Counted from the stretch's first letter, positions 1,012-17,536 are shown. The stretch is 64,000 nt of DNA from a virus (IMGVR_UViG_3300046819_000361), one strand, 5' to 3'. Notes: generated from the letters alone by a model not told the origin. Program-made: numbers and translations.

Positions 1012-1692
1012 TTATTTTTTAAACTTTCCGACCCAATCAGCAAATTCTTGGCTGATAATGTCTTCATATAAGTCTTCATCACTGATACTTTCGATATCAT
1101 CTATCTTCAAATAACCGGCATTTGGGTATTTTTCGCCCAAATATTCGATAAATGAGAAGTTCCCACCACCAATACCGATCAAAACCCAATATAAATCTTT
1201 AGATTGTGATTCTACGATAACCTTTTCAGTTGCTTGTTGATCGAAATTCTCGCCATCGGTGATGAAAATAGCTAATGATGGGTCAGTTGAATTAGATTTC
1301 TTCCCAAACAACTTCCCAAATAGGCCAGTTTGTACTGGTGCGGCACTATTAACGATGTCTTTCATGACTGGTGCATACTCTGTACCACCTTCACTAATTT
1401 TTTTGACGATTTCACGGTCAACAAAGTCTTCGATGTTGCTAATATTGACTGATGGCAGCTCAAATGAATCATTATGAAATGCCCAAATGTCAATAATTTT
1501 ATCTTTATCGATGTTCATACCAATTGCTAGCACTCGTTCTACCACATCTTGAACGACTTTGTTGCGATATAGGGTATTCATGGACCCACTGCGATCAATT
1601 GCCAGTTTTACTTGGCATGGAATGTCACGGATTTGTTTTTTAGTTAGGATGATACCTACTTTTTCTGCTCTTTTAGTTAAATCAATAGCCAT
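1012..1692 (-). CDS. vWA domain protein (TerF-associated vWA type)
   Basis: MIDAS motif DRSGSM, GGTEY and FITDGEN motifs; Ter-cluster context. Confidence 0.85.
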   Translation of the reverse strand: MAIDLTKRAEKVGIILTKKQIRDIPCQVKLAIDRSGSMNTLYRNKVVQDVVERVLAIGMNIDKDKIIDIWAFHNDSFELPSVNISNIEDFVDREIVKKISEGGTEYAPVMKDIVNSAAPVQTGLFGKLFGKKSNSTDPSLAIFITDGENFDQQATEKVIVESQSKDLYWVLIGIGGGNFSFIEYLGEKYPNAGYLKIDDIESISDEDLYEDIISQEFADWVGKFKK

Positions 1693-1721
1693 TTTTACTT
1701 ATCTCGGTTGATTGTTAAAAA

Positions 1722-2861
1722 TTAATGGGTTTTTGGTCCTGCAATAGTGGTCCGTCCAGCATTAGATGAAATGGAAGCATACATGCGCTTCATTTCATCC
1801 ATTCTCGATGCACTTTTAATTCTAGTTTCTTTACCAGTATTGTTTATTTGCACAATTTCTCCTAATGTACTGATTAGGTTTTGATGTACATGTTCTATTG
1901 TAGCATCATCTATCAATGAACGTTGGTTTAATTTTGCTGATTCAATTGAATTAGCACTAATGATGTTTGAATTGGTTTTAATTAGAGTATTGTTTGCATC
2001 ATCTACTGCTGCTGCTAATGCTGCACTTTTTCTTAATTCTTGACCATCTATATACATTCTGATTTGTCTTTTCCATAATGGAATAGTCATAGTTTTGATA
2101 TCATGGAATTTTTGGAGTAATGTTGCAGCACTATCTTCCATTTGACTAATTGAAGGTGCATTTTGAATAGCCATCATTTGAAATTTCTTCAAATAATCGA
2201 TTTTCTTCTCCAATCGATCTAAATTTTTTGTACTTCTATTAACTTCTTCGGCGGCAAGGAGATCTGATGCGTTAACCCGCATTTTTTCAATTTCTTTTGC
2301 CATTATTTGGTATGCTTCTTCTGCATCTTTGATCAAATTTTCTAATCTGTGATATTCATTCAAATTTTCACGGTATTGCACTTGCAGACCGTTTAATTTG
2401 GCAATAATTCTGTGATTGGCTTGATCAATTTCGTCAATAATTTTGTCCATTTGTGTGGACACATCAGTGAATTCTGCTGAAAGTTGTTCACGGACATTAA
2501 TAAACTTTTCTTTGATCTTTCCAAAGAGTTTTGAAATATTTGAATCTGAATTATTGTTCGTATTCAGGTGAAATGTCTTCGCCATTGTTAGAATACTAGT
2601 TAACTGTTGTTCAACGAAGTCAACGTCAGCATCTTTGACTTCATTTAATAAAGCTTCTGATTTTTTGGCAATATCTGACATAACATCCGCCCCGTAATCG
2701 ATAATCCCGGTTGGTGAATCAAATGTTGAAAGTAATTGGAGTACACGAGGATTGGATGCGCCTAAATCTGACAATTGTTTAGGTGAAACTGGTGTAAATG
2801 ACTGTTTAACTGAAACTTCAGTACCAGATGATGACACTTGAACAGGTTTAAAAGACTTCAT
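1722..2861 (-). CDS. Toxic anion resistance protein, TelA family
   Basis: Long coiled coil with TIPLWK motif and N-terminal IIDYGA; next to vWA and DUF475 genes. Confidence 0.8.
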   Translation of the reverse strand: MKSFKPVQVSSSGTEVSVKQSFTPVSPKQLSDLGASNPRVLQLLSTFDSPTGIIDYGADVMSDIAKKSEALLNEVKDADVDFVEQQLTSILTMAKTFHLNTNNNSDSNISKLFGKIKEKFINVREQLSAEFTDVSTQMDKIIDEIDQANHRIIAKLNGLQVQYRENLNEYHRLENLIKDAEEAYQIMAKEIEKMRVNASDLLAAEEVNRSTKNLDRLEKKIDYLKKFQMMAIQNAPSISQMEDSAATLLQKFHDIKTMTIPLWKRQIRMYIDGQELRKSAALAAAVDDANNTLIKTNSNIISANSIESAKLNQRSLIDDATIEHVHQNLISTLGEIVQINNTGKETRIKSASRMDEMKRMYASISSNAGRTTIAGPKTH

Positions 2862-4423: not shown

Positions 4424-5041
4424 ATGAAAACAATTAATTATAGAAAAATATACGAACAACATTATGGAAAAATACCAAAAGATGAAAACAATCGTTCATT
4501 TCAAATTCATCATATTGATGGAAATAGAAATAACAATGATATAACTAATTTATTGTGTGTTTCAATACAAGAACATTACGATATACATTATAAACAACAA
4601 GATTGGGGTGCGTGTTACCTTATTGGAAGAAAGATGAGAATACCGGTAAGTGAATTATCTGAACTAGTTAGGAATCAACAATATGTTAGGATAGCAAATG
4701 GAACACATAATTTACTCGGAGCAAATAACCCTGTTCATGCAAGAGTAGCTAATGGAACACATAATTTCCTTAAAGAAAATAGGTCACAAGAAGTTTGGAA
4801 TAAAGGGAAGACTAAAGAAACTGATTCAAGGGTTCGTAAAAATGCTGAATCCCGATCAAAAGTTAGATATAGTGAAGAAACTAAACAAGCCTTTAGAAAG
4901 CCAAAATCTGAGGCAGGGAAAATTAATATGAGATTAGGACAGTTGGGAAAAAAGTATCCTAAAATACAATGTTCTTGTTGCGGTAAAGAAATACCATCGA
5001 ATGCAATGGCTTCTCATATGAGAACACATACTAGGAAATAA
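4424..5041 (+). CDS. Free-standing HNH homing endonuclease
   Basis: IHHIDGNRNNNDITNL...EHYDIH HNH motif, ANGTHN repeats, C-terminal CxxC...HxxxH finger; TATAAATA at 4411-4418. Confidence 0.85.
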   Translation: MKTINYRKIYEQHYGKIPKDENNRSFQIHHIDGNRNNNDITNLLCVSIQEHYDIHYKQQDWGACYLIGRKMRIPVSELSELVRNQQYVRIANGTHNLLGANNPVHARVANGTHNFLKENRSQEVWNKGKTKETDSRVRKNAESRSKVRYSEETKQAFRKPKSEAGKINMRLGQLGKKYPKIQCSCCGKEIPSNAMASHMRTHTRK

Positions 5042-5045
5042 TTAG

Positions 5046-5324
5046 ATGGATATAACACAAATTGCTGATTTGATAAACCGATATGGATTTCCGATTATTG
5101 CGGCTGGGTATATGCTTCGGATGGTGAAATATGTGTGGTCATTCACTATTGATGAAATTAATCCTGTATTGGGGGAAGCAAGTAAAGAATTAATTACATT
5201 AATTGATCGTATTAGATTACTTGATAATGATTTATTGCGACTTACAGCGAAGTTAAATACAGTATTGCAAATGCGTGAAAATGCACAAAAGCAACAAACA
5301 AGGGGTAGTAATGAGAGTAAGTGA
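5046..5324 (+). CDS. Small membrane protein, paralogue 3
   Basis: YGFPIIAAG TM motif plus LIDRIRLLDNDLLRL coiled coil. Confidence 0.6.
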   Translation: MDITQIADLINRYGFPIIAAGYMLRMVKYVWSFTIDEINPVLGEASKELITLIDRIRLLDNDLLRLTAKLNTVLQMRENAQKQQTRGSNESK

Positions 5325-5601
5325 ATTTATAAATGAAGATTGGCAAAAAGTAAATAAAAAAGACAATACGGATGGTATGAGTCAAAAAGCAGTTAATTCT
5401 TATAAACGGGAAAATCCTGGTTCTAAATTAAAAACAGCAGTTACTACTAAACCTAGTGAGATTAAGAAAGGAAGTAAAGATGCCAATCGAAGAAAAAGTT
5501 TTTGTGCAAGATCAAATGGACAAAAAAAGATGCATAACATAGATTGTTCAAGCACACCTGATAAGCCAATATGTAAAGCTCGTAAACGATGGAATTGTTA
5601 A
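5311..5601 (+). CDS. Conserved basic phage protein (RRKSFCAR type)
   Basis: Start likely at 5311 (MRVSEFINED); NPGSKLKTAVT, RRKSFCARS and ARKRWNC motifs. Confidence 0.6.
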   Translation: MRVSEFINEDWQKVNKKDNTDGMSQKAVNSYKRENPGSKLKTAVTTKPSEIKKGSKDANRRKSFCARSNGQKKMHNIDCSSTPDKPICKARKRWNC

Positions 5602-5610
5602 GGAAACAAA

Positions 5611-6165
5611 ATGGGAATTGAAGATTTAGGATTAAAAGCAGCGAGGAAAGCTGAAGAAAAGCAAATATCCTCTGCTGGGGATAAAATCAAAAGTAGAGCT
5701 GGACTAGTAATTAATATTTTTGCTGCATTATTAGCTGCTAATACATATATCAGCGGAACATTGAACAGTACTATAATGAATAACACTATTAAAGCTAATG
5801 ATTTATGGAACTTTTATCAAGCAAAAAGTATGAAACAAACCATGTATGAATTAGCAGCATCAGATGCTGACACGCCTGAACTTTCTAAAAAGTTTTTAGA
5901 TAAGGCTGCCAGTTATGAAAGTGATCCAACCACACGTGAAGGAAAACAGGAGTTATTAGAAGATGCCAAAGCTTTGGAAGAAGCACGTGATGTTGCTAAA
6001 ACAAAAACACCTTGGATTTCTTATGCGAGTTCAGCATATCAATTAGCCATTGTATTATTGTCAACCAGTATATTATCAGCTAACATCTATTTGTTTTTTG
6101 GAAGTTTTATTGTGGCCGCCAGTGGTCTTGGACTAATGTTACAAGGAATATTTTTGTGGTGGTAA
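5611..6165 (+). CDS. DUF4337-like membrane protein
   Basis: N-terminal TM, DLWNFYQAKSMK motif, C-terminal QLAIVLLS TM pair. Confidence 0.7.
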   Translation: MGIEDLGLKAARKAEEKQISSAGDKIKSRAGLVINIFAALLAANTYISGTLNSTIMNNTIKANDLWNFYQAKSMKQTMYELAASDADTPELSKKFLDKAASYESDPTTREGKQELLEDAKALEEARDVAKTKTPWISYASSAYQLAIVLLSTSILSANIYLFFGSFIVAASGLGLMLQGIFLWW

Positions 6166-6260: not shown

Positions 6261-8330
6261 TTACTTACTAGTGGCAACAAATGTGCCATCCCAATCTTCT
6301 GGTAATGAATTACTGTTTTTGTATTCAGCAATACGATCAATCATCATTTCATAATAATGATCCATGTCACCATCAAACTCACATAATAATTGTTTACACA
6401 TTTCAGAAGCCACATCCCAATGTTTGCTTCGATAGGTATTTAACATTTGGTTGTGGTAAGATAATGCTGGATAATAATAATCATCATGATTAAAATCATC
6501 CAAATGGCTTAACACAGTAAAAATGTGTACTCCTTCTTTCTTACCTTTTACCGCGATTTTATCAAGTTCGATTATAAAGTATTCGTCTTTGATATAGTCT
6601 GCTGTCTTCGTGCCCAGAACGATTTTGACGCCGTATGGCTTGCTTTGGCCTTCAAGACGTGAAGCGAGGTTAACCCCATCTCCAAGGCAAGTATAATCAA
6701 AGCGCTGATTGCTACCCATATTACCAACAACGACAGTATCAGTGTTAATACCAAGTCCCATACCGAATGCAGGTACCCCCTCTTTCTCGATCTCATCATT
6801 AAACTCCTTTAAGTTAATTAACATTTGTAATGCTGTTTTTACAGCATGTTTTGCATGATCGGGGTCATCTAGTGGGGCATTCCAAAACGCCATTTGAGCA
6901 TCGCCGATATATTTGTCTAATGTTCCATCGTTTTCAATGATTTTTGCGGTCATAGCAGTCATATAACGGTTCATTATTTGTGTCAATCCTTGTACATTTT
7001 TACCATAATGTTCTGAAATAGATGTGAATCCACGTACATCTGTAAACATAATTGAAAGTTCACGTGACTCACCGCCTAATGTTAATAATTCAGGATTTTT
7101 CTGTAATTTTTCTACTAAAGCAGGGCTTAAATAAGTGCCAAATTGTTTTTTAATTTGTTGCTTTTGAAAGAATTCACTGAGGAATTTAACACCGTAAGCA
7201 TGTAAACCAACCAACACTATACCACTTACGAAAGCAGTTATGTCAAACAGATACAAATATGTTAAAAATACATAGTGACTGGCGAATACGGCACCAACTG
7301 ACAGTGCAATTATTGATGCTAGCCCAATATAAATCCATCTAGTGAGGAATAACAATATAGTACCAGTTATTAATAATACTAATACCTCCACGCCATCTGC
7401 ATAATCAGGGCGTTGGATAACAACCCCATTCATCATTGTTCCTATTACTGCTGCTTGTGCTTCATGTGGAAAGATAGCACCATTGGCAGTTGGTATTGGG
7501 TTACCAATCCCTGCTGCGGTTGGTCCAACAATGACGATCCCACCAATAAAATCGTAATCATCTGTGATAGTATTTAAACCTTTGTTGATAGACTTCTGAC
7601 TCCAATCAATCCAGATACGGCCTAAATTATCAGTAGTGATCGGTCCAAATTTAGGAATTCTCAGTTTTTCAACGCCATTTTCATTTAGTTTGATTTGGAA
7701 TGTAGTATCACCAGCCGCAACCCGTAACGTTTCTAAACCTAACGATGGGTATAACTTATCCTTAACTGAAACCACTAATGGCATTCTACGATTAACCCCG
7801 TCTATTTCTGGTAAGGTATTAACTGTGCCAACGCCTGCTGCTTCATCATTCAATATTTCAATATTTGAAATGATACCTGGGTATTGAATTATTCTATCAA
7901 GGAAATCTGGGCCTAATACAGCCGCACCTGGTACTCTTGGGGTATTTTTAGTAAAATCAGCTGGTATGCTTGGTAAAATAACCAAGTTATTTTTTAATGT
8001 ATTAGATAATACTTTATCCCCGCCCTGACGGTCAGGTTCTGGCATCAAAACGTTAAAAACGACCAACCCAGCGTTATGCTTATATAGATCTTCGATTATT
8101 TGAGCATATATATCGCGTTTAAATGGCCATTGTCCATACTTATCTAATGAGTTTTCATCGATATTAATAGTATAAATTGGATTATTTGTGATAGGTTTTG
8201 CTGAAATAAGCGTGTCAAAATATCGTAATCTAACACTTTCCACAAATTCTGGATCAGAAATTCGAACACTTAATATTACAATCAATGTTAATAATGCCGT
8301 CCAAGGGTTTAATAATATTTTTTTAATCAT
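6261..8330 (-). CDS. CHASE2-domain class III adenylate cyclase
   Basis: IDENSLDKYGQWPF CHASE2 start, 3 TM helices, FTDVRGFT, DKYIGDA and GDGVNLASRLE catalytic motifs. Confidence 0.92.
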   Translation of the reverse strand: MIKKILLNPWTALLTLIVILSVRISDPEFVESVRLRYFDTLISAKPITNNPIYTINIDENSLDKYGQWPFKRDIYAQIIEDLYKHNAGLVVFNVLMPEPDRQGGDKVLSNTLKNNLVILPSIPADFTKNTPRVPGAAVLGPDFLDRIIQYPGIISNIEILNDEAAGVGTVNTLPEIDGVNRRMPLVVSVKDKLYPSLGLETLRVAAGDTTFQIKLNENGVEKLRIPKFGPITTDNLGRIWIDWSQKSINKGLNTITDDYDFIGGIVIVGPTAAGIGNPIPTANGAIFPHEAQAAVIGTMMNGVVIQRPDYADGVEVLVLLITGTILLFLTRWIYIGLASIIALSVGAVFASHYVFLTYLYLFDITAFVSGIVLVGLHAYGVKFLSEFFQKQQIKKQFGTYLSPALVEKLQKNPELLTLGGESRELSIMFTDVRGFTSISEHYGKNVQGLTQIMNRYMTAMTAKIIENDGTLDKYIGDAQMAFWNAPLDDPDHAKHAVKTALQMLINLKEFNDEIEKEGVPAFGMGLGINTDTVVVGNMGSNQRFDYTCLGDGVNLASRLEGQSKPYGVKIVLGTKTADYIKDEYFIIELDKIAVKGKKEGVHIFTVLSHLDDFNHDDYYYPALSYHNQMLNTYRSKHWDVASEMCKQLLCEFDGDMDHYYEMMIDRIAEYKNSNSLPEDWDGTFVATSK

Positions 8331-9196
8331 AACATATTTTCTATATAGTTTACAATGTGGTCTGCGACATTAACATTACAATATTGGTTAAATCCGCTAA
8401 ATCCTGGGTTTGAATTTGCTTCACACACAACAAATCCTTCTTTTGTAAAAAGCAAATCAATACCGGCTATGTCTAATCCTAGCACATCTGCTGTGTCAAT
8501 TGCAATCTCTTCTATTTCTGGGGTAACTTCGTATTTCTCGCCAGTCCCACCATTTGATATATTGGCTCTAAAGTCATTTTTTGGTGCGGTTCTTTTCATT
8601 GCGCCCAGAACTTTGCCACCAACCACAAACACTCTTAAATCCTCACCTGGGCGATCACCAATATACTCTTGTGCAATTAATGTTTTTTCATTATGAAGTG
8701 CATCTACGAATTCGATAATTCTAGTATATTCGAGCTCGGATTGACATAGGTATACCCCTTCACCAAAACTACCAACTACTACTTTGATTACACAAGGAAA
8801 TCCAATTGTAGTGGCCACTAAATTATTTGTTATTGGAAACTTGACCACCATTGTGGTTGGTACTGGGATATTATTGCGGCTTAATATTTCACTAGTTTGA
8901 AATTTATCCTGGACTATATTAATACTTTCACTTGAATTAATGCATGGAATATTGGCTAATTCGAAGTATCTGATAACCGATAGTTCTGAACGGGTAATAC
9001 CAGCACCCAATCTTACTAACACTATTTTTGGTAGATCGAATTTAATTCCTTGATAATAAATACCGTCATTGATTACAATATCAAATAAATTAAAATTACA
9101 GACTTTTACAGTTATATTCTTATCCACAAAACTCTCTAATAATTTTAGAGTTTCAAAATCGTGGGTTGCGTGTTTAGTTAGTATTAAAACTGACAT
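8327..9196 (-). CDS. rimK: RimK-family ATP-grasp ligase
   Basis: DKFQT, GSFGEGV, QEYI...DLRVFVVG, FRANISNGG, GIDLL, EANSNPGF. Confidence 0.85.
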   Translation of the reverse strand: MSVLILTKHATHDFETLKLLESFVDKNITVKVCNFNLFDIVINDGIYYQGIKFDLPKIVLVRLGAGITRSELSVIRYFELANIPCINSSESINIVQDKFQTSEILSRNNIPVPTTMVVKFPITNNLVATTIGFPCVIKVVVGSFGEGVYLCQSELEYTRIIEFVDALHNEKTLIAQEYIGDRPGEDLRVFVVGGKVLGAMKRTAPKNDFRANISNGGTGEKYEVTPEIEEIAIDTADVLGLDIAGIDLLFTKEGFVVCEANSNPGFSGFNQYCNVNVADHIVNYIENML

Positions 9197-9231
9197 GGGT
9201 TTCCTATATATTAAACTGTATTTATTTAGAA

Positions 9232-10341
9232 TTATTGCTGAACTGAAATTTTAGCACATCCTCCTAGTGTCGCACAATTGAAATTTATAGAATATGACTG
9301 ATTGGTATTGCCGCTTTGTGAAAGACTGAGATCAGTTGGCTGCCCTGATATTATGATCTTGGCCATATGATTTCCTGATCCTTGTTGTAATGTATCTACG
9401 TTTTTATTATTGCCATTCAATTCAATTTCAAGGTAATGATTTCCGTTATCTTTTTGTTGAGATAATAATGAGTTATTATCACCATTAATTTTAGAAAATA
9501 TTCCCTTATCTCCGCCCGAACTGAGTTGTAATATAGAAGCGTTGTTATTATTGCCTAAAATAATTAATTCTGTGTAATTCGTACCAGATATTGATGACAA
9601 AGTTTCGTCAATATTAACAGTATTATTAGATCCAACACCATAGTAATTAACAAAATTATTTTTAGACCCAGATTGAGTAATTGTTATTGTATTTAAATCA
9701 CCAATTTGCTCGATATAAACCTGTGTATCAGATGTTGCTCGGTTTATAAATGATTGGACATTTGCGGCATTTACCGTATTTGTATTGAATTGAAATGATG
9801 ACCCGCCACAGCACAATGGTGGTACAAAATAGCTAGGAGAGGTAGCTAAATTGTTAGTAGGTACAACTACTATTCCGGACCCAACATCCCAATTTAGTTG
9901 AATAACTGCACCCCCTCCATTCTCATACCACCACACATCTATAGTGTACACTTGTCCTGAAGTCAGCGTAATACTCCCAGAACCATTAAAATTTGCTGGT
10001 CCTTGTTCAATCCAATTGTTAATAACAGTGGTGTTATTGATTGACATATAGAATCCATCATCACTTCTGTTATAGAAAGTTATTGTTTTATTGCCTGACG
10101 GACCTGGCCATAAAATGTTTCCTGTAAAATGAACTAGTACACCATCTGTGCGTCCTGAATCCATGACTACACCACTGCCCCAATTATAATTTAATGATGG
10201 GACTATACCGGATGATAGAATGGTTCTATTGGTTGTTCTGGTAGGTGTTGCGCCTCCTGCGGCATACGCAACATATTCGAGGCCGAGTACTCCATCTGCT
10301 AATACACGAAATGATATCAAAAACAATAATATATATTTCAT
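9232..10341 (-). CDS. Secreted PA14-domain protein with C-terminal curlin-like repeats
   Basis: Signal peptide; SDDGF and WYENGGGA PA14 motifs; (I/L)xQxGxxN repeats; terminal Cys pair. Confidence 0.75.
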   Translation of the reverse strand: MKYILLFLISFRVLADGVLGLEYVAYAAGGATPTRTTNRTILSSGIVPSLNYNWGSGVVMDSGRTDGVLVHFTGNILWPGPSGNKTITFYNRSDDGFYMSINNTTVINNWIEQGPANFNGSGSITLTSGQVYTIDVWWYENGGGAVIQLNWDVGSGIVVVPTNNLATSPSYFVPPLCCGGSSFQFNTNTVNAANVQSFINRATSDTQVYIEQIGDLNTITITQSGSKNNFVNYYGVGSNNTVNIDETLSSISGTNYTELIILGNNNNASILQLSSGGDKGIFSKINGDNNSLLSQQKDNGNHYLEIELNGNNKNVDTLQQGSGNHMAKIIISGQPTDLSLSQSGNTNQSYSINFNCATLGGCAKISVQQ

Positions 10342-11435
10342 TTTATTTGTATTACTCCAGTATTTTGTGTAATAGTCACTATATTTCCACCTGGGCTACC
10401 ATCACCTATAATGGTTGATGCTGATACACTATTTTGAATAATATTAATTGTAGTATTAGAATTAAATCCTTGTGTTTTTATTTCAGAATAATGTTCAAAC
10501 GGTGCAATTCGAAAAGCTGTCCCTTTGCCACGATCTCTGATATCATCATTATTTTTATCCCACGCAACGCATATACTTGTAACCGCATTACACCCTAATT
10601 TACCAGCAGCTGCCATCATTGCTAGAATCCTTGCTTGTTCAATTTCCTCGCCGCTTTTTGAAACTTGAATTGCAACCCTACGTGCGGCTTCGGCTTCTAT
10701 TTCTTCTAATTCCTTATCTCTTGGGGATTTCATTACTTCTTTCATAACTCTCTGTACTTCTAATGGTTTTACGATAATCAGATTATTGGTTATTTTCGAC
10801 TCAATTATATTAATTGATGTAGCCGGGGTTGGTGAGATGGTTGCACTTTGTACAAATGTAGCTTGAAATGCTTCGTCAAGAATTACTTTTCCAGCCAATG
10901 TTTCTACTTCAATTTTCCCTACTTTGCAGGTATTTTCAGCTAATTCGTATTTTTTGATATCTTTTTCATCCTTGCAGCTCGGGACTAAAACGATTAAACT
11001 TTGTCCAGATTCATCAACTGTCATAGTGAAATCAGTTCCCCTAACCGCAATTGTGGCAGCTGGCGTTTTAATATTTACTTGTTGTGGGTTATTTTTTGCA
11101 ATTTGACCTGATGCATATCTTACTGTACCCATACCAACTTTTAATGCTAGTTTACTTGCATCGCTAGCTTTTGGATCGAAAACAAAATCATCAATTAAAA
11201 GCCGACTATTTTCTGTAACTTTTACTTTAGTATCGTCTTTGAATGTTATATTACTGGTACAACTGCCAGTAATATAAACATCCATACTTTCTATAATAAC
11301 ACCTTTATCCCCAGGAATATTCTTTTTATTTCTTTCAATTTTACACCCATTGCTCGTGGCATCGGTTACTGTCCCTATACCAGCATAAGCAACTTGTGAT
11401 GATAATAACAAAATTATTACCGGAATTATATGCAT
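10338..11435 (-). CDS. Secreted FecR-domain protein
   Basis: Signal peptide; ITFKDDTKVKVTENSRL and IKTPAATIAVRGTDF FecR motifs. Confidence 0.8.
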   Translation of the reverse strand: MHIIPVIILLLSSQVAYAGIGTVTDATSNGCKIERNKKNIPGDKGVIIESMDVYITGSCTSNITFKDDTKVKVTENSRLLIDDFVFDPKASDASKLALKVGMGTVRYASGQIAKNNPQQVNIKTPAATIAVRGTDFTMTVDESGQSLIVLVPSCKDEKDIKKYELAENTCKVGKIEVETLAGKVILDEAFQATFVQSATISPTPATSINIIESKITNNLIIVKPLEVQRVMKEVMKSPRDKELEEIEAEAARRVAIQVSKSGEEIEQARILAMMAAAGKLGCNAVTSICVAWDKNNDDIRDRGKGTAFRIAPFEHYSEIKTQGFNSNTTINIIQNSVSASTIIGDGSPGGNIVTITQNTGVIQIK

Positions 11436-11437
11436 AA

Positions 11438-12235
11438 CTATCTTGCTATAGCGGCTTGTGCATTTACTATTGTACTTGAGCTAGATCTAACCGTGATTGT
11501 ATTATTATCACCTGATGTCTTGATATCAATAGTAGTGTCATTCGTTCCTTGTTGTTGAGTGGTGATAGCATTAAAATTACCAACAATTACTTCTTTTAAA
11601 TTGTGACCAATAGCCCCAGCGACATCACTTTGCTCGACGTTTAACAAATTACTATTTCCCGTGATGCTTATATCAGACACACCATTAGTACTTAAAAGAT
11701 TTTCTGTGACCTGATTACTATTGCCCGTAATTCCTAAAGTACTAGAAATATAATTGCCTATGATATTTTGGATAACTGAGTTTGAATTGCCAGTAATAGT
11801 TTCGGTGATAACAACATGATGATTATCTGTATGATTGGTATCACCGATCACTAATCTATTATTGTTATCATTCCCAGTAACAGTATTTGAATAGCGATTG
11901 TTACTTCCTCTGATGATATATTGTGCCCAGTTGTTATTCCCGTGTTGTGTCATTGACAGTGTATTGCTGCCACCATTGATAGTGGCATAATTAGATGCAC
12001 TTGGTGCATCTGGTACATTTGTAACCACATTTGTATTGGCATCAGTTGTGATAGTTCCAGATATACCTCCTATATTATTGGTGCCGCCTACCTGTTCGAT
12101 TGTAATAACATTAGTATTGCCTAATTGTTCCATGAACACATTATTGGGACCAGTTGCAGTGCCGGTTGCTAATAATAATGATGAAAAAGATACCATTAAT
12201 GATGCTATTAAATAATTAATTATTTTTCGTTTCAT
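11438..12235 (-). CDS. Curlin-like (CsgA/CsgB-type) repeat protein
   Basis: Signal peptide; N/Q/G/T-rich with regular EQxGxxN and ITGNSN repeats. Confidence 0.75.
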   Translation of the reverse strand: MKRKIINYLIASLMVSFSSLLLATGTATGPNNVFMEQLGNTNVITIEQVGGTNNIGGISGTITTDANTNVVTNVPDAPSASNYATINGGSNTLSMTQHGNNNWAQYIIRGSNNRYSNTVTGNDNNNRLVIGDTNHTDNHHVVITETITGNSNSVIQNIIGNYISSTLGITGNSNQVTENLLSTNGVSDISITGNSNLLNVEQSDVAGAIGHNLKEVIVGNFNAITTQQQGTNDTTIDIKTSGDNNTITVRSSSSTIVNAQAAIAR

Positions 12236-13050
12236 TTCCTTTGCTCCATTGTTGATTTAAACGCCCAGTGACCTTTACGAGCGCCTTCACGAACTGTATC
12301 TACAACTGCGGCTTGGATAGCTTTATTAGTTGCTCTATTAATACTTTCGTTTATGCTACCACCTATTTCTGCTTCTAATGCTTTGGTGTCGGCGGCAATG
12401 AATCTCAATACACCAAATTTATCCATATAACTTAACACTGTTTTTGTTACGGTGACCGATGTTAAAATCTCGCCTGATGTAACTGATACAGTCCGCAGAC
12501 TCACAGTAACTGTGTCACTTTGATATTGTGTTTCGCCTCCGATTCCAAAAATCCGAACCCCAGCACCCCCTGTCAACGTATTGGAATCATAACCGACAAT
12601 TGCCCCTTCTGCTATAACCCCTGCGAATAACATAGCTGGTAATGCTTGTGCATCTTTACCTTGGAATTGCTCACGAGCTTGCCTAATCATCTGTCGTTCT
12701 TTGATCAAGTTATCCAACCCAACTCGTTCAACCACTGTGAACCATCTAGCATCACCCACATCTTGTAATGCTTTAATCAAGTAGTTCTCAGCACCTTGCG
12801 TGACCGCAGAACTTAAACTGGCAATATTTGGCATTGATTTTCTTTGACCAGTTTTATCAGTAAACCCGTAAACTGCGATGGGGATAGATCCAGATGATGG
12901 TGGATCTAATTTGTTTTCATCTTTTAATAAAAAAATACTTTGCTCGATAATCGGATTGTCAAATTGTTCACCTGTGATAAATTTGTTTATAGCACTGCTG
13001 GTAGCACACCCTTGTAATAATATCATTGATAAAATAATAATTTTGTTCAT
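12232..13050 (-). CDS. csgG: Curli secretion channel CsgG
   Basis: Lipobox LQGC; AVYGFTDKTGQRK, SAVTQGA and WFTVVERVGLDNLIKERQMIR. Confidence 0.92.
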   Translation of the reverse strand: MNKIIILSMILLQGCATSSAINKFITGEQFDNPIIEQSIFLLKDENKLDPPSSGSIPIAVYGFTDKTGQRKSMPNIASLSSAVTQGAENYLIKALQDVGDARWFTVVERVGLDNLIKERQMIRQAREQFQGKDAQALPAMLFAGVIAEGAIVGYDSNTLTGGAGVRIFGIGGETQYQSDTVTVSLRTVSVTSGEILTSVTVTKTVLSYMDKFGVLRFIAADTKALEAEIGGSINESINRATNKAIQAAVVDTVREGARKGHWAFKSTMEQRK

Positions 13051-13052
13051 AA

Positions 13053-13532
13053 TTAGAAATAAAATGACCCAGATGGTACTTTCATTGATGTGGATTGAGA
13101 TGGGTTTGAGTTATTAGTGATATTAATAATAATCAATCCTTGATCCAATCCAGCGCCTAAACTCCAAGTGACACTATTGCCGCCTAAATCTGGCATTGTT
13201 CCGCATACTGCTCCTGGTGTGGTGCATGTTGATCCTTCACTAAACATAGAGTCAGTTAATTGTTTAGCTAATTGTGAGTAAATTCTAGATTCTAAATTTG
13301 CTAAAAATTTAGCTTGTGGAGTATTTTGAGCATCAGATAATATCTTTGTACGTAATGCATCCGCAGCAGCTTTATTTTTATCAGATGCTTGCGTTTCTAA
13401 TTGATTTAGTGTTAACGCATGTGAGCTAAATCCAATGCCACTAAATGCTGGACTATTAAACGTGTGCTGTAATTCGGATGAATTTACAGATAATGCTACA
13501 ATTAATAATGAAAAACCTAGTACTTTGGTCAT
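13053..13532 (-). CDS. csgF: Curli assembly protein CsgF
   Basis: Signal peptide followed by ELQHTFNSPAFSG; FLANLESRIYSQLAKQL; directly upstream of csgG. Confidence 0.8.
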   Translation of the reverse strand: MTKVLGFSLLIVALSVNSSELQHTFNSPAFSGIGFSSHALTLNQLETQASDKNKAAADALRTKILSDAQNTPQAKFLANLESRIYSQLAKQLTDSMFSEGSTCTTPGAVCGTMPDLGGNSVTWSLGAGLDQGLIIINITNNSNPSQSTSMKVPSGSFYF

Positions 13533-13586: not shown

Positions 13587-14258
13587 TTAATCTATTGGAA
13601 ACAAACACTGTGTTACATAGATAGATGCTTGATCTTCTGTCAGACCTAAATTCATTAGAACTTTGGGATTGTGTGGGTTAAGCCGTTGATTTTCAATATA
13701 AAACCTATGTTTATCTGAAATATCAAGAACTGTGTGATTGGTATCTTTTAATGATATAAGATATGTTAGCAGGGTGGATGAAATGGTAGACACTATTTGA
13801 GATATCTCAGAATCTAGTTGAATATTACCAGCGGCAATTATCGATTCTGAGAAAATACGTTTACCCCAATCTGGTAATTCTCTTTTTTTATTCCATGATA
13901 ATTTATTTGATTCTTCGTCAAACCAAGATGATAATGGGTGATTACTAATGACGGGGCTAAAATCATGAAAACACCCAGTTATTTTATTTCTACCGGCAAA
14001 CACATCAAACCCAAAAATTGGTGCAGGGTTATGATAATGTGGATAAATGCAGCAATGCATCATCCATAACCCACGAGTATCCATTGTATCAATAACATTG
14101 ATATGTGCTTTTCTATATAAATCAGAAACCCAGGTGGTATTACACCAACCTGGGTTATTGAATTGCTCAATTGATGAAGCAGAAATTTTTCCTGATTCAT
14201 CGAGCTGGTGTGTGAATAACTGCTGAATGCTATTTAACGAATCCAGCAGTTTATTCAT
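13587..14258 (-). CDS. Ferredoxin-dependent bilin reductase (PcyA/PcyX-like)
   Basis: MHCCIYP, PIFGFD, DFSP, RELPDWG and QRLNPH motifs; coupled to heme oxygenase. Confidence 0.85.
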   Translation of the reverse strand: MNKLLDSLNSIQQLFTHQLDESGKISASSIEQFNNPGWCNTTWVSDLYRKAHINVIDTMDTRGLWMMHCCIYPHYHNPAPIFGFDVFAGRNKITGCFHDFSPVISNHPLSSWFDEESNKLSWNKKRELPDWGKRIFSESIIAAGNIQLDSEISQIVSTISSTLLTYLISLKDTNHTVLDISDKHRFYIENQRLNPHNPKVLMNLGLTEDQASIYVTQCLFPID

Positions 14259-14787
14259 GTAACGCCTTCATGATTTTTATTGCCCATTCAAACGCAACTC
14301 TAGCCTCATCACCTAAATCATCTGTCATTTCTGCTCTAATTGCATTTCTTAATCCGTCTACGTCATCAAACTGGTAGAATTTTCCAGAACCAGGTGTTGT
14401 TTTTGCGATGTATTGCCCACCGTATAAATCCCCCGTGTGACGAACATATAAATGTGCTTTTATTAAATGTCTACGTGTCGGATCATTCAATAAATCTACT
14501 ACATATTGATTATAAGCCATCGTTTCTGGTAAAAACGCATAATGTGTATTGACATCACGCAATTCAATAAAATCTTGGTAAATTCCAGGTAAACGTTCAA
14601 TACCTGGTAAGTTATCAAAAAACCCTAATATTTTACACCCAAATTCTACAGGTCCGTATGCAGCCATCATCTGATATAGATAATTTGTATACAATTCTTG
14701 TGAAATTTTACCGGTTAATAGTAATTTTGCAAAAGATGTTTTTTCAGCTTCCGTGTGCAAATCTTTGGTGATCTCTTTTAAACTCAT
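14251..14787 (-). CDS. Heme oxygenase
   Basis: LKEITKDLHTEAE and HLYVRHTGDLYGGQ. Confidence 0.9.
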   Translation of the reverse strand: MSLKEITKDLHTEAEKTSFAKLLLTGKISQELYTNYLYQMMAAYGPVEFGCKILGFFDNLPGIERLPGIYQDFIELRDVNTHYAFLPETMAYNQYVVDLLNDPTRRHLIKAHLYVRHTGDLYGGQYIAKTTPGSGKFYQFDDVDGLRNAIRAEMTDDLGDEARVAFEWAIKIMKALHE

Positions 14788-15087
14788 TTATTCCTCTGCG
14801 ATAGTTATTTGTAATGGGAACCCATTTTCACGGGCCATTTTAGTTGCTTCTACCGATTTAGTTTCTGCAATTTCGAAATCATAAAAACCAGCAATACCAG
14901 AACCACTTTCGTGTACTTGCATAGTAACAGTGGTTGCTGAATGGATTGTGTGATTAAAGATTTCAATCAACATTGCAATTACAAAATCAATAGGTGTGTG
15001 ATCGTCATTAAGCACAACGACTTTCCATCGTTTTGGTTCGGTAACTTTGACTGCAACATTTTCTTTGATTTTAATATCAGTAGACAT
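14788..15087 (-). CDS. clpS: ATP-dependent Clp protease adaptor ClpS
   Basis: VVVLNDDHTPIDFV, MQVHESG, EIAETK, GFPL. Confidence 0.92.
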   Translation of the reverse strand: MSTDIKIKENVAVKVTEPKRWKVVVLNDDHTPIDFVIAMLIEIFNHTIHSATTVTMQVHESGSGIAGFYDFEIAETKSVEATKMARENGFPLQITIAEE

Positions 15088-15107
15088 ATTTTAATTCCAG
15101 ATAAGGT

Positions 15108-15125
15108 GGGGGAGGAAACTCCCCC
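15108..15125 (-). terminator. GC-rich hairpin after hsp20
   Basis: GGGGGAG-GAAA-CTCCCCC. Confidence 0.5.
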
Positions 15126-15131
15126 TGGTTA

Positions 15132-15569
15132 TTATTTAATTTCGATTTTTCTTGGTTGTAACGTTTCAGGGATTATACGCTCAATTTTAATTTTAAGCAA
15201 CCCATCTTTTACCTCTGCTTCTCGAACTTCCATGAATTCTGCTAACGCATAAGTCTGTTCAAAATCACGTGATGCTAACCCACGGTGTAAATATTCCCAA
15301 TCAGCTGATTCTACTTTATCACTGTGTGTTCCAGTAATTTTAAGAATATTTGATCCAGCTGAATGTGAACTATCAATCATAACAGAGATATCGTCTTTTG
15401 TAAAGCCTGATACTGCTAATTCGATACCATAGTTCAAATCATCATATTTTATAATATTATGTGGAGGATAACTTCCAGTATTGAAATTTACACGTGAATT
15501 AAACAGGCTATCAAAGCCAATTAAAGTTTTAGCTAACACTGATGCGTCTATTGGTCTTAATGTTGTCAT
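15132..15569 (-). CDS. Small heat-shock protein Hsp20 (IbpA-like)
   Basis: YPPHNI, IELAVSGF, YLHRGLASRDF, DGLLKI. Confidence 0.92.
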   Translation of the reverse strand: MTTLRPIDASVLAKTLIGFDSLFNSRVNFNTGSYPPHNIIKYDDLNYGIELAVSGFTKDDISVMIDSSHSAGSNILKITGTHSDKVESADWEYLHRGLASRDFEQTYALAEFMEVREAEVKDGLLKIKIERIIPETLQPRKIEIK

Positions 15570-15626
15570 GCTTGTCTCCTTATTTAAGCAAGAAGCTCAT
15601 AACACCCAATTTGGCATGTTATGAGC
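15570..15626 (-). promoter_or_regulatory. ROSE-like RNA thermometer leader of hsp20
   Basis: UCUUGCUU-AAAU-AAGGAGA hairpin with bulged G over the SD, preceded by a long hairpin. Confidence 0.7.
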
Positions 15627-15643
15627 ATATATCACACTTGTGA

Positions 15644-17536
15644 TTAAACCTCTTTGAATTCCGCATTCATGGAATCATCACCGCCTTCGGTTGTTGACGG
15701 ATTATTTGCTTGTTCAGCTTCTTGTTTTTTTGCAAAAACCGGAGTGGCTGCTTCAAACAATTTTTGTATCGATTGTTGAATTTCTTCGACATTATCGCCG
15801 CTATTGGCTTTTTCAAGATTTTCGACAGCTGATTGAAATGCTGATTTTTCTTCATCAGTTAATTGATCTTTTACTTCATCAAAGTCTTTTTGCAAAGAGT
15901 GACGTTGTGATTCTGCTTGATTACGTGCTTCAATCAACTCTTTTTGTTTTTTATCTGCATCGGCATTTTCTTCAGCATCTTTCACCATACGTTGAATTTC
16001 TTCCTCGGTTAATCCTGAATCCGATTTAATGGTGATGTTATTCTTCTTACCAGTGCCCTTATCCGCTGCTGAAATGTGCATAATACCATTTGCATCAATA
16101 TCAAAAGTTACTTCGATTTGTGGAATACCGCGTGGTGCAGGTGGAATCCCATCTAAATTAAATTCACCCAACTGTTTGTTATATCTATATAAATCACGTT
16201 CACCTTGCCCAACTTTAATAGTTACGGCTGGCTGGTTATCATCCGCTGTTGAGAATGTTTGACTCGCTTTAGTTGGGATTGTAGTATTCTTTTGAATCAA
16301 TTTGGTAAAAACCCCACCCATTGTTTCAATACCAAGTGACAACGGTGTTACATCTAGTAACAATACATCGGTTTTATCACCTGCTAATACTGCGCCTTGA
16401 ATTGCTGCACCGGCTGCCACTGCTTCGTCTGGATTGATATCTTTACGTGGTGTTTTGCCGAACAATTTTTCAACTGCTTCCTGTACTTTTGGCATTCTAG
16501 TTTGACCGCCAACGAGAATTACTTCATCGATATCACTATTACTAACGCCTGCATCTTTTAATGCGATTAAACATGGTTGTAATGATCGTTGAATCAAATC
16601 ATCAACAATTGATTCAAATTTTGCACGAGTTAATTTAACGTTTAAGTGTTTTGGACCAGATGCGTCTGCAGTGATATATGGTAGATTTACATCGGTTTGT
16701 TCTGATGATGACAGCTCAATTTTAGCTTTTTCAGCACTTTCTTTCAATCGTTGTAAAGCTAATGTATCATTTTTCAAGTTGATACCGGAATCTTTTTCAA
16801 ACTCAGTGACTAAAAATTCCATTAAGCGTTGATCAAAATCTTCACCACCTAAAAATGTATCACCATTGGTTGATAATACTTCAATTTGTTTCTCACCATC
16901 GATATTTGCAATCTCGATAATTGAAATATCAAATGTACCACCGCCAAGATCATAAACAGCTACTTTGCGATCTTTATTATCGGCTTTATCAACACCGTAT
17001 GCTAAAGCAGCGGCTGTTGGCTCGTTGATAATACGTAACACTTCAAGACCAGCAATTCTGCCAGCGTCTTTGGTAGCTTGTCGTTGCGAATCGTTAAAGT
17101 ACGCTGGGACTGTAATTACCGCTTGTGATACTTCATGTCCGAGGTAATCTTCTGCAGTTTTCTTCATTTTACGAAGAACCTCTGCTGAAATTTGTGGAGG
17201 AGCTAATCGCTCACCATTTGCTTCAACCCAAGCGTCGCCATTTTCGGCTTTGATGATTGAATACGGCATTAAGTCGATGTCTTTTTGTACTGCTTCTTCT
17301 TCGAATTTTCTTCCGATCAATCGTTTTGCAGCATAAATTGTATTTTTTGGATTTGTGACAGATTGGCGTTTTGCTGCAGCACCGACTAATACTTCATTAT
17401 CAGTATATGCAATAATTGACGGGGTTGTGCGAGTGCCTTCTGAATTTTCGATAACTTTGGCAGATCCATTTTCAAGAATTGCCACACAAGAATTTGTGGT
17501 ACCCAAATCGATACCGATGATTGATGTTTTACTCAT
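15644..17536 (-). CDS. dnaK: Chaperone DnaK (Hsp70)
   Basis: [25 protein letters not shown]; full length, 630 aa. Confidence 0.98.

Follow-up and report, generated by a model that had tools for sequence, protein, structure and literature searches.

A curli-type export cluster with a FecR-fold protein and a CHASE2 adenylate cyclase in a freshwater jumbo phage, and its possible role in envelope-to-cAMP signaling

Why would a bacteriophage carry a fiber-secretion system together with an enzyme that makes cyclic AMP (cAMP)? The question is raised by seven genes at positions 6261-13532 of a stretch of viral DNA of 64,000 nucleotides (IMGVR_UViG_3300046819_000361; here, the window), which encode the curli-type export parts CsgF and CsgG, two curlin-repeat proteins, a secreted protein with a FecR fold, a RimK-type ligase, and a CHASE2 adenylate cyclase. 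CsgG and CsgF export curlin-repeat proteins, FecR/PupR-type domains bind the periplasmic domains of outer-membrane partners, and retention modules keep adhesins in their outer-membrane pore. The best explanation of the cluster, to which we give slightly better than even credence, is that a phage joined an envelope-to-cAMP signaling pair to a fiber-secretion system.

A "partial curli operon" has been described in phages before, in papers whose text does not mention the cyclase or FecR (PMC7029224, PMC9004378). The full viral type VIII secretion system (T8SS) module, including FecR and an adenylate cyclase, was published in 2022 as a set of genes that are co-conserved and are expressed in metatranscriptomes (PMC9599517). 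That study found the virus-encoded curli module at 65 of 65 ocean stations examined, where it made up ~0.1% of assembled viral proteins, and reported an alphaproteobacterial origin and myophage-podophage transfer; FecR was read as an iron regulator, and CHASE2, PA14, and RimK went unmentioned. No later paper explaining the FecR/cyclase pair was found in the literature. The suggestion of a first-pass annotation of the window that this is a new candidate system is therefore superseded, and it is close to certain that the cluster is a further member of the published viral T8SS module family of SAR11 and OM43 phages. Pelagibacter phage HTVC008M and Methylophilales phage Melnitz have the same order of csgF, csgG, curlin, FecR, second curlin, and cyclase, without rimK; their cyclases are 38-41% identical to that of the window, and their proteins overall are 38-45% identical. 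The module of the pelagiphages (HTVC008M, Melnitz, and HTVC023P-type podophages) thus resembles that of the window in gene set and order, small membrane proteins, and cyclase clade, whereas the window differs in being from a freshwater jumbo phage, in the PA14 head, in the rimK gene before the cyclase, and in a small membrane-protein gene that lies downstream. New here are the freshwater jumbo-phage setting, the PA14 head on one curlin, and rimK as a patchy insert. Also new is that the "FecR" protein, judging by sequence profiles and a structural model, appears to resemble both the PupR signaling domain and an adhesin retention module and to bear a curlin-like tail.

Export parts and their linkage to FecR and the cyclase

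All seven open reading frames (ORFs) are intact and lie on the minus strand, head to tail from csgF to the cyclase gene. Gaps of 2 nt separate csgF from csgG and the curlin 1 gene from the FecR gene, a gap of 35 nt precedes rimK, and overlaps of 4 nt join csgG to the curlin 1 gene, the FecR gene to the PA14-curlin gene, and rimK to the cyclase gene; the coordinates and spacing are those given by the first-pass annotation, which had described seven co-oriented, tightly packed genes. CsgF, both curlins, and the FecR protein begin with sequences resembling signal peptides; in CsgG there is a lipobox.

The CsgF-like protein (13053..13532; 159 amino acids [aa]; Pfam PF10614, E 2e-7) has homologues in 70 related viral loci. 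Its N-terminal signal peptide is followed by the motif TFNSPAFSG, which resembles the N-terminal segment of CsgF that enters the CsgG barrel. The outer-membrane channel lipoprotein CsgG (12232..13050; 272 aa; PF03783, E 8e-49; lipobox LLQGC) matches Escherichia coli CsgG (3x2r) with an E value of 4e-47. The gene after csgG in nearly all related loci encodes curlin 1 (11438..12235; 265 aa, with a signal peptide), which gave no Pfam match at threshold (Curlin_rpt E 0.94); the profile of its family does match that of the curlin repeats in the second curlin family (P 1.7e-16). Curlin 1 is probably the main exported fiber subunit.

The second curlin-repeat protein (9232..10341; 369 aa; Pfam PA14 1e-9, Curlin_rpt 2.8e-4) combines an N-terminal, lectin-like PA14 head with a C-terminal half that scores 21.2 bits for Curlin_rpt (cutoff, 20.7). 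An AlphaFold2 (AF2) model of curlin 2 has a confident PA14 sandwich at residues 21-160, a disordered linker at 174-203, and regular strand-turn repeats at 207-343. Foldseek matched the head to 6qdi (3.6e-10) and 6x8a (7e-8), and by this likeness of predicted fold it resembles the sugar-sensing or sugar-binding PA14 domains of RsgI, MpIBP, and flocculins. The head is variable; among 34 members of the family, Curlin_rpt was found in 18 and PA14 in only 7. The lectin tip that had been proposed for the fiber is thus present here but is not a general feature of second curlins. In one related locus (L027:5190-7748), an 853-aa protein with an autotransporter beta-domain (Pfam 1e-20) follows the FecR gene at the usual place of the second curlin.

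Compared with the E. coli curli system (csgBAC/csgDEFG), the phage module has in common the CsgG lipoprotein channel, the CsgF N-terminal segment, and exported curlin-repeat proteins; it differs in its additional FecR-fold, PA14, and cyclase parts, in the residues at the channel constriction, and in being virus borne. An absence of csgE, csgC, and csgD had been noted from the window. For CsgE (PF10627), this extends to three near-complete relatives of the phage, in which it was not found by a search whose E. coli positive control worked; for CsgC and CsgD, it stands as the observation that none was seen in the cluster.

Linkage of these genes was assessed from both ends of the module. At least 595 viral contigs encode a relative of the cyclase, and the 10-kb neighborhood was examined for 82 cyclase-seeded loci. 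Within that distance, csgG was present in 71, csgF in 70, and FecR in 73 to 74; the 11 loci without csgG are explained by contigs that end within a few kilobases of the cyclase. A csgG-seeded sample, which represents the HTVC008M-like clade, was counted by the downstream flank available. With 6 kb or more downstream, curlin, FecR, and cyclase were all present in 23 of 23 loci, and with 2.5 kb or more, FecR was present in 48 of 48. The FecR and cyclase genes are therefore co-conserved with csgFG whichever gene is used as the seed, and the lack of co-conservation that the first-pass annotation had named as refuting its reading was not observed; the shared occurrence of the parts extends over hundreds of viral contigs. 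In a cyclase tree, all 53 nonredundant viral cyclases, including those of Melnitz and HTVC008M, were split from 72 bacterial ones with a Shimodaira-Hasegawa-like approximate likelihood ratio test value of 100, a grouping judged on the cyclase alone of all the module proteins. The window's cyclase is closest to those of loci whose CsgG is ~50% identical.

The FecR-fold protein, the cyclase, and their bacterial counterparts

Also shared with the marine phages is a secreted FecR-fold protein (10338..11435; 365 aa; Pfam FecR 6.5e-10). A signal peptide (residues 1-18, AYA/G) leads directly into a beta domain; there is no other hydrophobic segment, and there is neither a transmembrane (TM) anchor nor a cytoplasmic anti-sigma domain. 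A role as an anti-sigma factor was rejected because the signal peptide runs straight into the beta domain. The protein thus has the fold of the FecR/PupR signaling domain but, unlike the FecIRA anti-sigma regulators, lacks the anti-sigma domain and the TM anchor. Neither an extracytoplasmic function (ECF) sigma factor of the FecI type nor a TonB-dependent, FecA-type transducer was found among the annotated neighbors of the cluster.

The AF2 model of this protein (predicted local distance difference test score, 86) consists of the beta domain (residues 21-195), a helix of ~55 residues (225-280), and a small C-terminal beta domain (288-357). Residues 49-219 superimpose on the C-terminal cell-surface signaling domain (CCSSD) of PupR (6ovk_R; Z 15.5, root mean square deviation [rmsd] 2.9, 137 residues). 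Residues 17-113 superimpose on PDB 5ix9 (Z 10.4, rmsd 2.2, 73/76 residues, 22% identity), a structure of the N-terminal retention module from MpIBP, an adhesin secreted by the type I route, that serves as a model for the LapA plug (bioRxiv 10.1101/198937). The phage protein gave no match to NF033682, the LapA retention module, at E 0.01 and has no RTX repeats. Although it shares the retention-module fold with the LapA and MpIBP adhesins, it differs from them in being Sec exported, short, and without an RTX secretion signal, and for a pore it would use CsgG in place of a TolC-like protein.

A likeness to the terminal repeats of curlin 2 is seen in the last 70 aa of the FecR-fold protein (P 4e-4, against 0.56 for the reversed control), and 74 viral homologues have extreme C termini of a similar kind. 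A match of the tail to curlin 1 (P 0.025) was rejected as not significant, and hidden Markov models of curlins matched no FecR ORF at E 1e-3.

The last gene of the cluster encodes a CHASE2 class IIIb adenylate cyclase (6261..8330; 689 aa; Pfam CHASE2 PF05226, 5e-37; Guanylate_cyc, 1e-19). It consists of a first TM segment, a periplasmic CHASE2 domain, three further TM segments, a cytoplasmic catalytic domain, and a conserved C-terminal extension of ~90 aa (hydrophobic segments at residues 2-20, 311-329, 339-357, and 360-378), and its CHASE2 layout is the same as that described for CHASE2 sensor proteins (PMC5192318). In alignments with Spirulina CyaC (1wc1) and 6fht, all six catalytic residues are kept, and they are invariant or nearly so among 60 homologues. 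The metal-binding Asp residues lie in FTDVRGFT and YIGDA, the Lys in DKYIGD, the Thr in FDYTCLG, and the Asn and Arg in VNLASRLE. The comparison with 1wc1 bears out the Asp pair, the Lys, and the Asn/Arg pair named in the first-pass annotation and adds Thr as the second specificity residue, which assigns the enzyme to class IIIb. By these residues, the enzyme is an intact class IIIb adenylate cyclase.

The closest bacterial relatives of the cyclase point to the kind of protein with which it may act. The 80 closest are almost all alphaproteobacterial and are 31-38% identical over their full length. Of these 80 orthologues, 28 have a FecR-like ORF at a distance of up to 10 kb, immediately next to the cyclase gene in 11 to 12 cases, whereas none (0/80) has csgF or csgG in that range. 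Conversely, a CsgG relative was found in 6 of 301 sampled alphaproteobacterial genomes, with csgF and curlins nearby in 6 of 6 and with FecR or the cyclase within 10 kb in 0 of 6. Among the samples searched, csgFG joined to FecR and the cyclase was seen only in phages, in agreement with PMC9599517.

The bacterial FecR-domain neighbors of the cyclase are large and adhesin-like, combining FecR with cadherin, VCBS, or Big_9 domains and RTX repeats. NF033682 scored 21-31 bits, below its cutoff of 50, in four of five of them, at the matching position. In nine loci (L094:5691-9836, L091:6033-9710, L097, L098, L104, L109, L121, L123, and L124), a giant adhesin-like gene stands directly upstream of the cyclase gene in the same orientation. 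The giant proteins, from Bradyrhizobium, Methylobacterium, and related genomes, have an N terminus resembling FecR or a retention module, followed by cadherin/VCBS and RTX repeats. A literature search found no paper on this pairing of bacterial adhesins with CHASE2 cyclases.

Pairing of FecR-domain proteins with CHASE2 proteins in bacterial signaling, to which the first-pass annotation had appealed, is thus borne out by these orthologues and by earlier work. In other phyla, CHASE2 cyclases are grouped with outer-membrane proteins that bear a FecR domain (PMC9239204), and CHASE2 kinases cluster with LysM/FecR proteins (PMC5192318). Genetic experiments in Sinorhizobium meliloti have proved that, without NsrA in the outer membrane, the CHASE2 cyclases do not sense an external protein (PMC7529298, PMC13001267), the former paper treating NsrA with CyaK; CyaD1 becomes constitutive once its CHASE2 domain is removed (PMC5498481). 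That NsrA itself has a FecR domain is assumed from the description of such clusters in PMC9239204 and not from the NsrA sequence. With that assumption, the window resembles NsrA with CyaK/CyaD1/CyaD2 in encoding an alphaproteobacterial-type CHASE2 inner-membrane cyclase together with a FecR-domain envelope protein; it differs in that the phage FecR-fold protein is without a barrel, and CsgG is the sole outer-membrane component in the phage.

Accessory genes, genomic setting, and carrier phage

Between curlin 2 and the cyclase lies rimK, which encodes an ATP-grasp poly-glutamate ligase (8327..9196; 289 aa; Pfam RimK PF08443, 4e-47; Rimk_N PF18030, 1.5e-10). It had been counted as part of the system, a view that did not survive the wider comparison. 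The gene is present in 8 of ~70 cyclase-seeded loci and in 1 of 23 csgG-seeded loci, and it stands alone in cyanophages S-RIM8, S-RIM12, and S-CAM8. As a core component, RimK was rejected, since its occurrence is scattered on the cyclase tree, where the most recent common ancestor of the rimK-positive tips holds 34 tips, of which 4 are positive. It is a patchy accessory insert and not a core part.

A small protein with a single TM segment and a coiled coil (5046..5324, plus strand; 92 aa) was recognized by clustering and has 109 phmmer matches. Members of its family (~93-125 aa, usually two paralogues) accompany the module in 69 related loci; the genes lie upstream of csgF in the marine phages (e.g., L001:4270-4908 and L002:3926-4488), whereas in the window the gene is downstream and convergent. 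The family belongs to no Pfam family and gave no histidine kinase match. By its position, the protein is probably the "HK" of PMC9599517; a histidine kinase identity for the small proteins at that position was rejected, as they are without a kinase domain.

In ~21 relatives, the cyclase has calcineurin-like phosphoesterase (Metallophos) genes in its vicinity (e.g., L017:13170-14006 and L022:11112-11909); the window has none. They were rejected as cAMP phosphodiesterase partners because they are LpxH/YfcE-like, with a match to CpdA of just 18 bits.

Directly upstream of csgF and co-oriented with it, positions 13587-17536 (minus strand) encode host-like DnaK, Hsp20, ClpS, heme oxygenase, and ferredoxin-dependent bilin reductase. 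The DnaK (630 aa) is 65-69% identical to DnaK-annotated sequences of the phage collection, and the heme oxygenase and bilin reductase pair also precedes csgF in ~11 related viral loci. Convergent with the end of the cyclase gene are genes for a very basic DUF6321 protein (5275-5601, plus strand) and a DUF4337 protein (5611-6165, plus strand), and a few relatives (L005, L025, L026, L027, and L033) also have homologues of the latter close to the cyclase. Near the window start (1012-2861, minus strand) are genes for a TerF-like vWA protein and a protein of a tellurite resistance (TerD-type) PHROG family. At 5114-5307, next to an HNH endonuclease gene (4424-5041), a lake-water contig (run X3) has 1218 other bases in place of the window's 192, a difference that suggests a variable insertion site.

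The window is phage DNA, encoding tail proteins and ribonucleotide reductase, and its cluster-carrying relatives include viral records of 328-344 kb that are 92-100% complete, one of them with terminal repeats. At least 90% of the sampled words of the stretch occur in each of 12 metagenome runs from 12 studies, which are from lake water or unspecified and exclude the probable source sample. An independent 19-kb lake-water DNA contig covers the entire cluster and shows 84 differences in 10.5 kb, so the arrangement, including rimK, is no assembly artifact. The carrier is a widespread freshwater jumbo phage. By megablast, the cluster has no nucleotide match in the phage collection. The nearest record (G001) lacks the cluster, which is uninformative since that record is a 16%-complete fragment. 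In two freshwater metatranscriptome runs, short contigs correspond to segments of the cyclase and rimK genes; several cluster parts are uncovered, and carryover of DNA is possible.

A sensing relay and its rivals

As a trans-envelope sensing relay, the module would work as follows, a scheme that we put forward tentatively and at somewhat less than even probability. CsgG and CsgF would form an outer-membrane channel in the infected cell, and the channel would export curlin 1 and the variable-headed curlin 2, yielding surface fibers. The FecR-fold protein would stay in the periplasm, where its N-terminal domain may function in the way of PupR/FecR or like the retention plug of an adhesin, and its long helix and curlin-like tail would extend toward the channel or fiber. 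Together with CHASE2 it may constitute an outside-in relay, like NsrA with CyaK/CyaD, in which cAMP synthesis would follow the state of the channel or fiber; cAMP would then act on host receptors. Gene content and homologies are observed; the direction of signaling, the effect of cAMP, and the contacts between the parts are what we infer.

Several observations weigh against the joining of a signaling pair to fiber secretion and against this relay, beginning with the fact that the contacts are inferred. A complex prediction for the periplasmic residues 24-318 of the CHASE2 protein with the mature FecR-fold protein gave a score of 0.01, which is uninformative either way on binding. The AF2 model of the FecR-fold protein has no outer-membrane barrel, unlike NsrA, and its tail resembles curlin repeats no more than moderately (P 4e-4 for curlin 2, 0.025 for curlin 1). 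The constriction residues Y51/N55/F56 of E. coli CsgG are not conserved and align here with M/S/L, and curlin export through this channel may therefore depart from the classical mode. Parts of the module do not always form one operon, since 11 loci have the csgFG-FecR block in inverted orientation with respect to the cyclase and other genes often intervene between the two. When the window is compared with two related loci (L014 and L062), identity is 73-95% from csgF to curlin 2, 68-69% for rimK, and 65-70% for the cyclase; the halves can thus recombine apart, and the sequences suggest a recombination boundary near rimK. No cyclic nucleotide monophosphate (cNMP)-binding protein is encoded in the three near-complete relatives, for which positive controls worked. 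The earlier proposal that cAMP reports to the phage therefore lacks a phage-encoded receiver in these genomes, and the cAMP output must rely on host receptors.

The same genes could be read as fibers with a separate cyclase, which we regard as rather unlikely. The fibers would serve aggregation ("sibling capture") or as a superinfection shield, ideas that come from PMC7029224 and PMC9599517; the FecR-fold protein would be a chaperone or gate replacing CsgE, which was not found in the relatives; and the cyclase would flood the host with cAMP independently of the fiber. The occasional inversion of the cyclase or its distance of several kilobases from csgFG-FecR, and a level of divergence unlike that of the remaining genes of the block, suit such independence. 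However, a full periplasmic CHASE2 domain, which an unregulated cAMP generator would not need, is present in 60 of 60 aligned homologues, bacterial members of the cyclase family pair with FecR-domain proteins without curli genes, and Melnitz showed no clumping (PMC9004378). It is distinctly less probable, and in our judgment unlikely, that the "FecR" protein is itself a periplasmic retention plug whose tail threads or docks CsgG and seeds the fiber, so that load or ligand on the PA14 fiber would act mechanically on CHASE2 and thence on cAMP. If true, the phage would have installed a surface-contact sensor, by the same logic as the pairs of RTX adhesin and CHASE2 cyclase in Bradyrhizobium, Methylobacterium, and other Alphaproteobacteria.

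Regulation in the opposite direction, with iron- or cAMP-based control of secretion and FecR as an iron-related regulator, was proposed in PMC9599517, and the Pfam match to FecR is real. This seems improbable given a cleavable signal peptide that leads into the FecR fold without a cytoplasmic anti-sigma domain or TM anchor, a cluster without a FecI sigma factor or FecA-type transducer, relatives in which no CsgD or cNMP-binding regulator was found, and bacterial homologues beside the cyclase that are adhesin-like and not iron regulators. Least probable, and in our estimate very much so, is a role in the timing of lysis, in which CsgG/CsgF would have been turned into a gated pore of the outer membrane or a device like a pinholin, with the other genes as accessories. 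Such a role was proposed for Melnitz (PMC9004378), and it would suit the altered constriction residues of CsgG and the small single-TM family that always adjoins the module. It leaves unexplained two conserved curlin-repeat substrates, the FecR-fold protein, and a sensor cyclase, and the module sits among host-like accessory genes (dnaK, hsp20, clpS, and heme oxygenase) and not among lysis genes.

A trans-envelope sensing role, as suggested in the first-pass annotation, is plausible, and it fits the FecR and CHASE2 genes better than the interpretation published in PMC9599517 does. For the biology of these phages, the finding means that the virus-encoded curli module also lives in abundant giant phages of lake water. 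FecR and the cyclase are better read as a transplanted envelope-to-cAMP signaling pair than as an iron regulator and a generic cyclase, and the same pair accompanies large surface adhesins in bacteria. We hypothesize that the state of the fiber or channel is passed to the FecR-fold protein, from there to CHASE2, and so to cAMP. Because Melnitz and HTVC008M carry the same module, this hypothesis is testable in culturable phage-host pairs.

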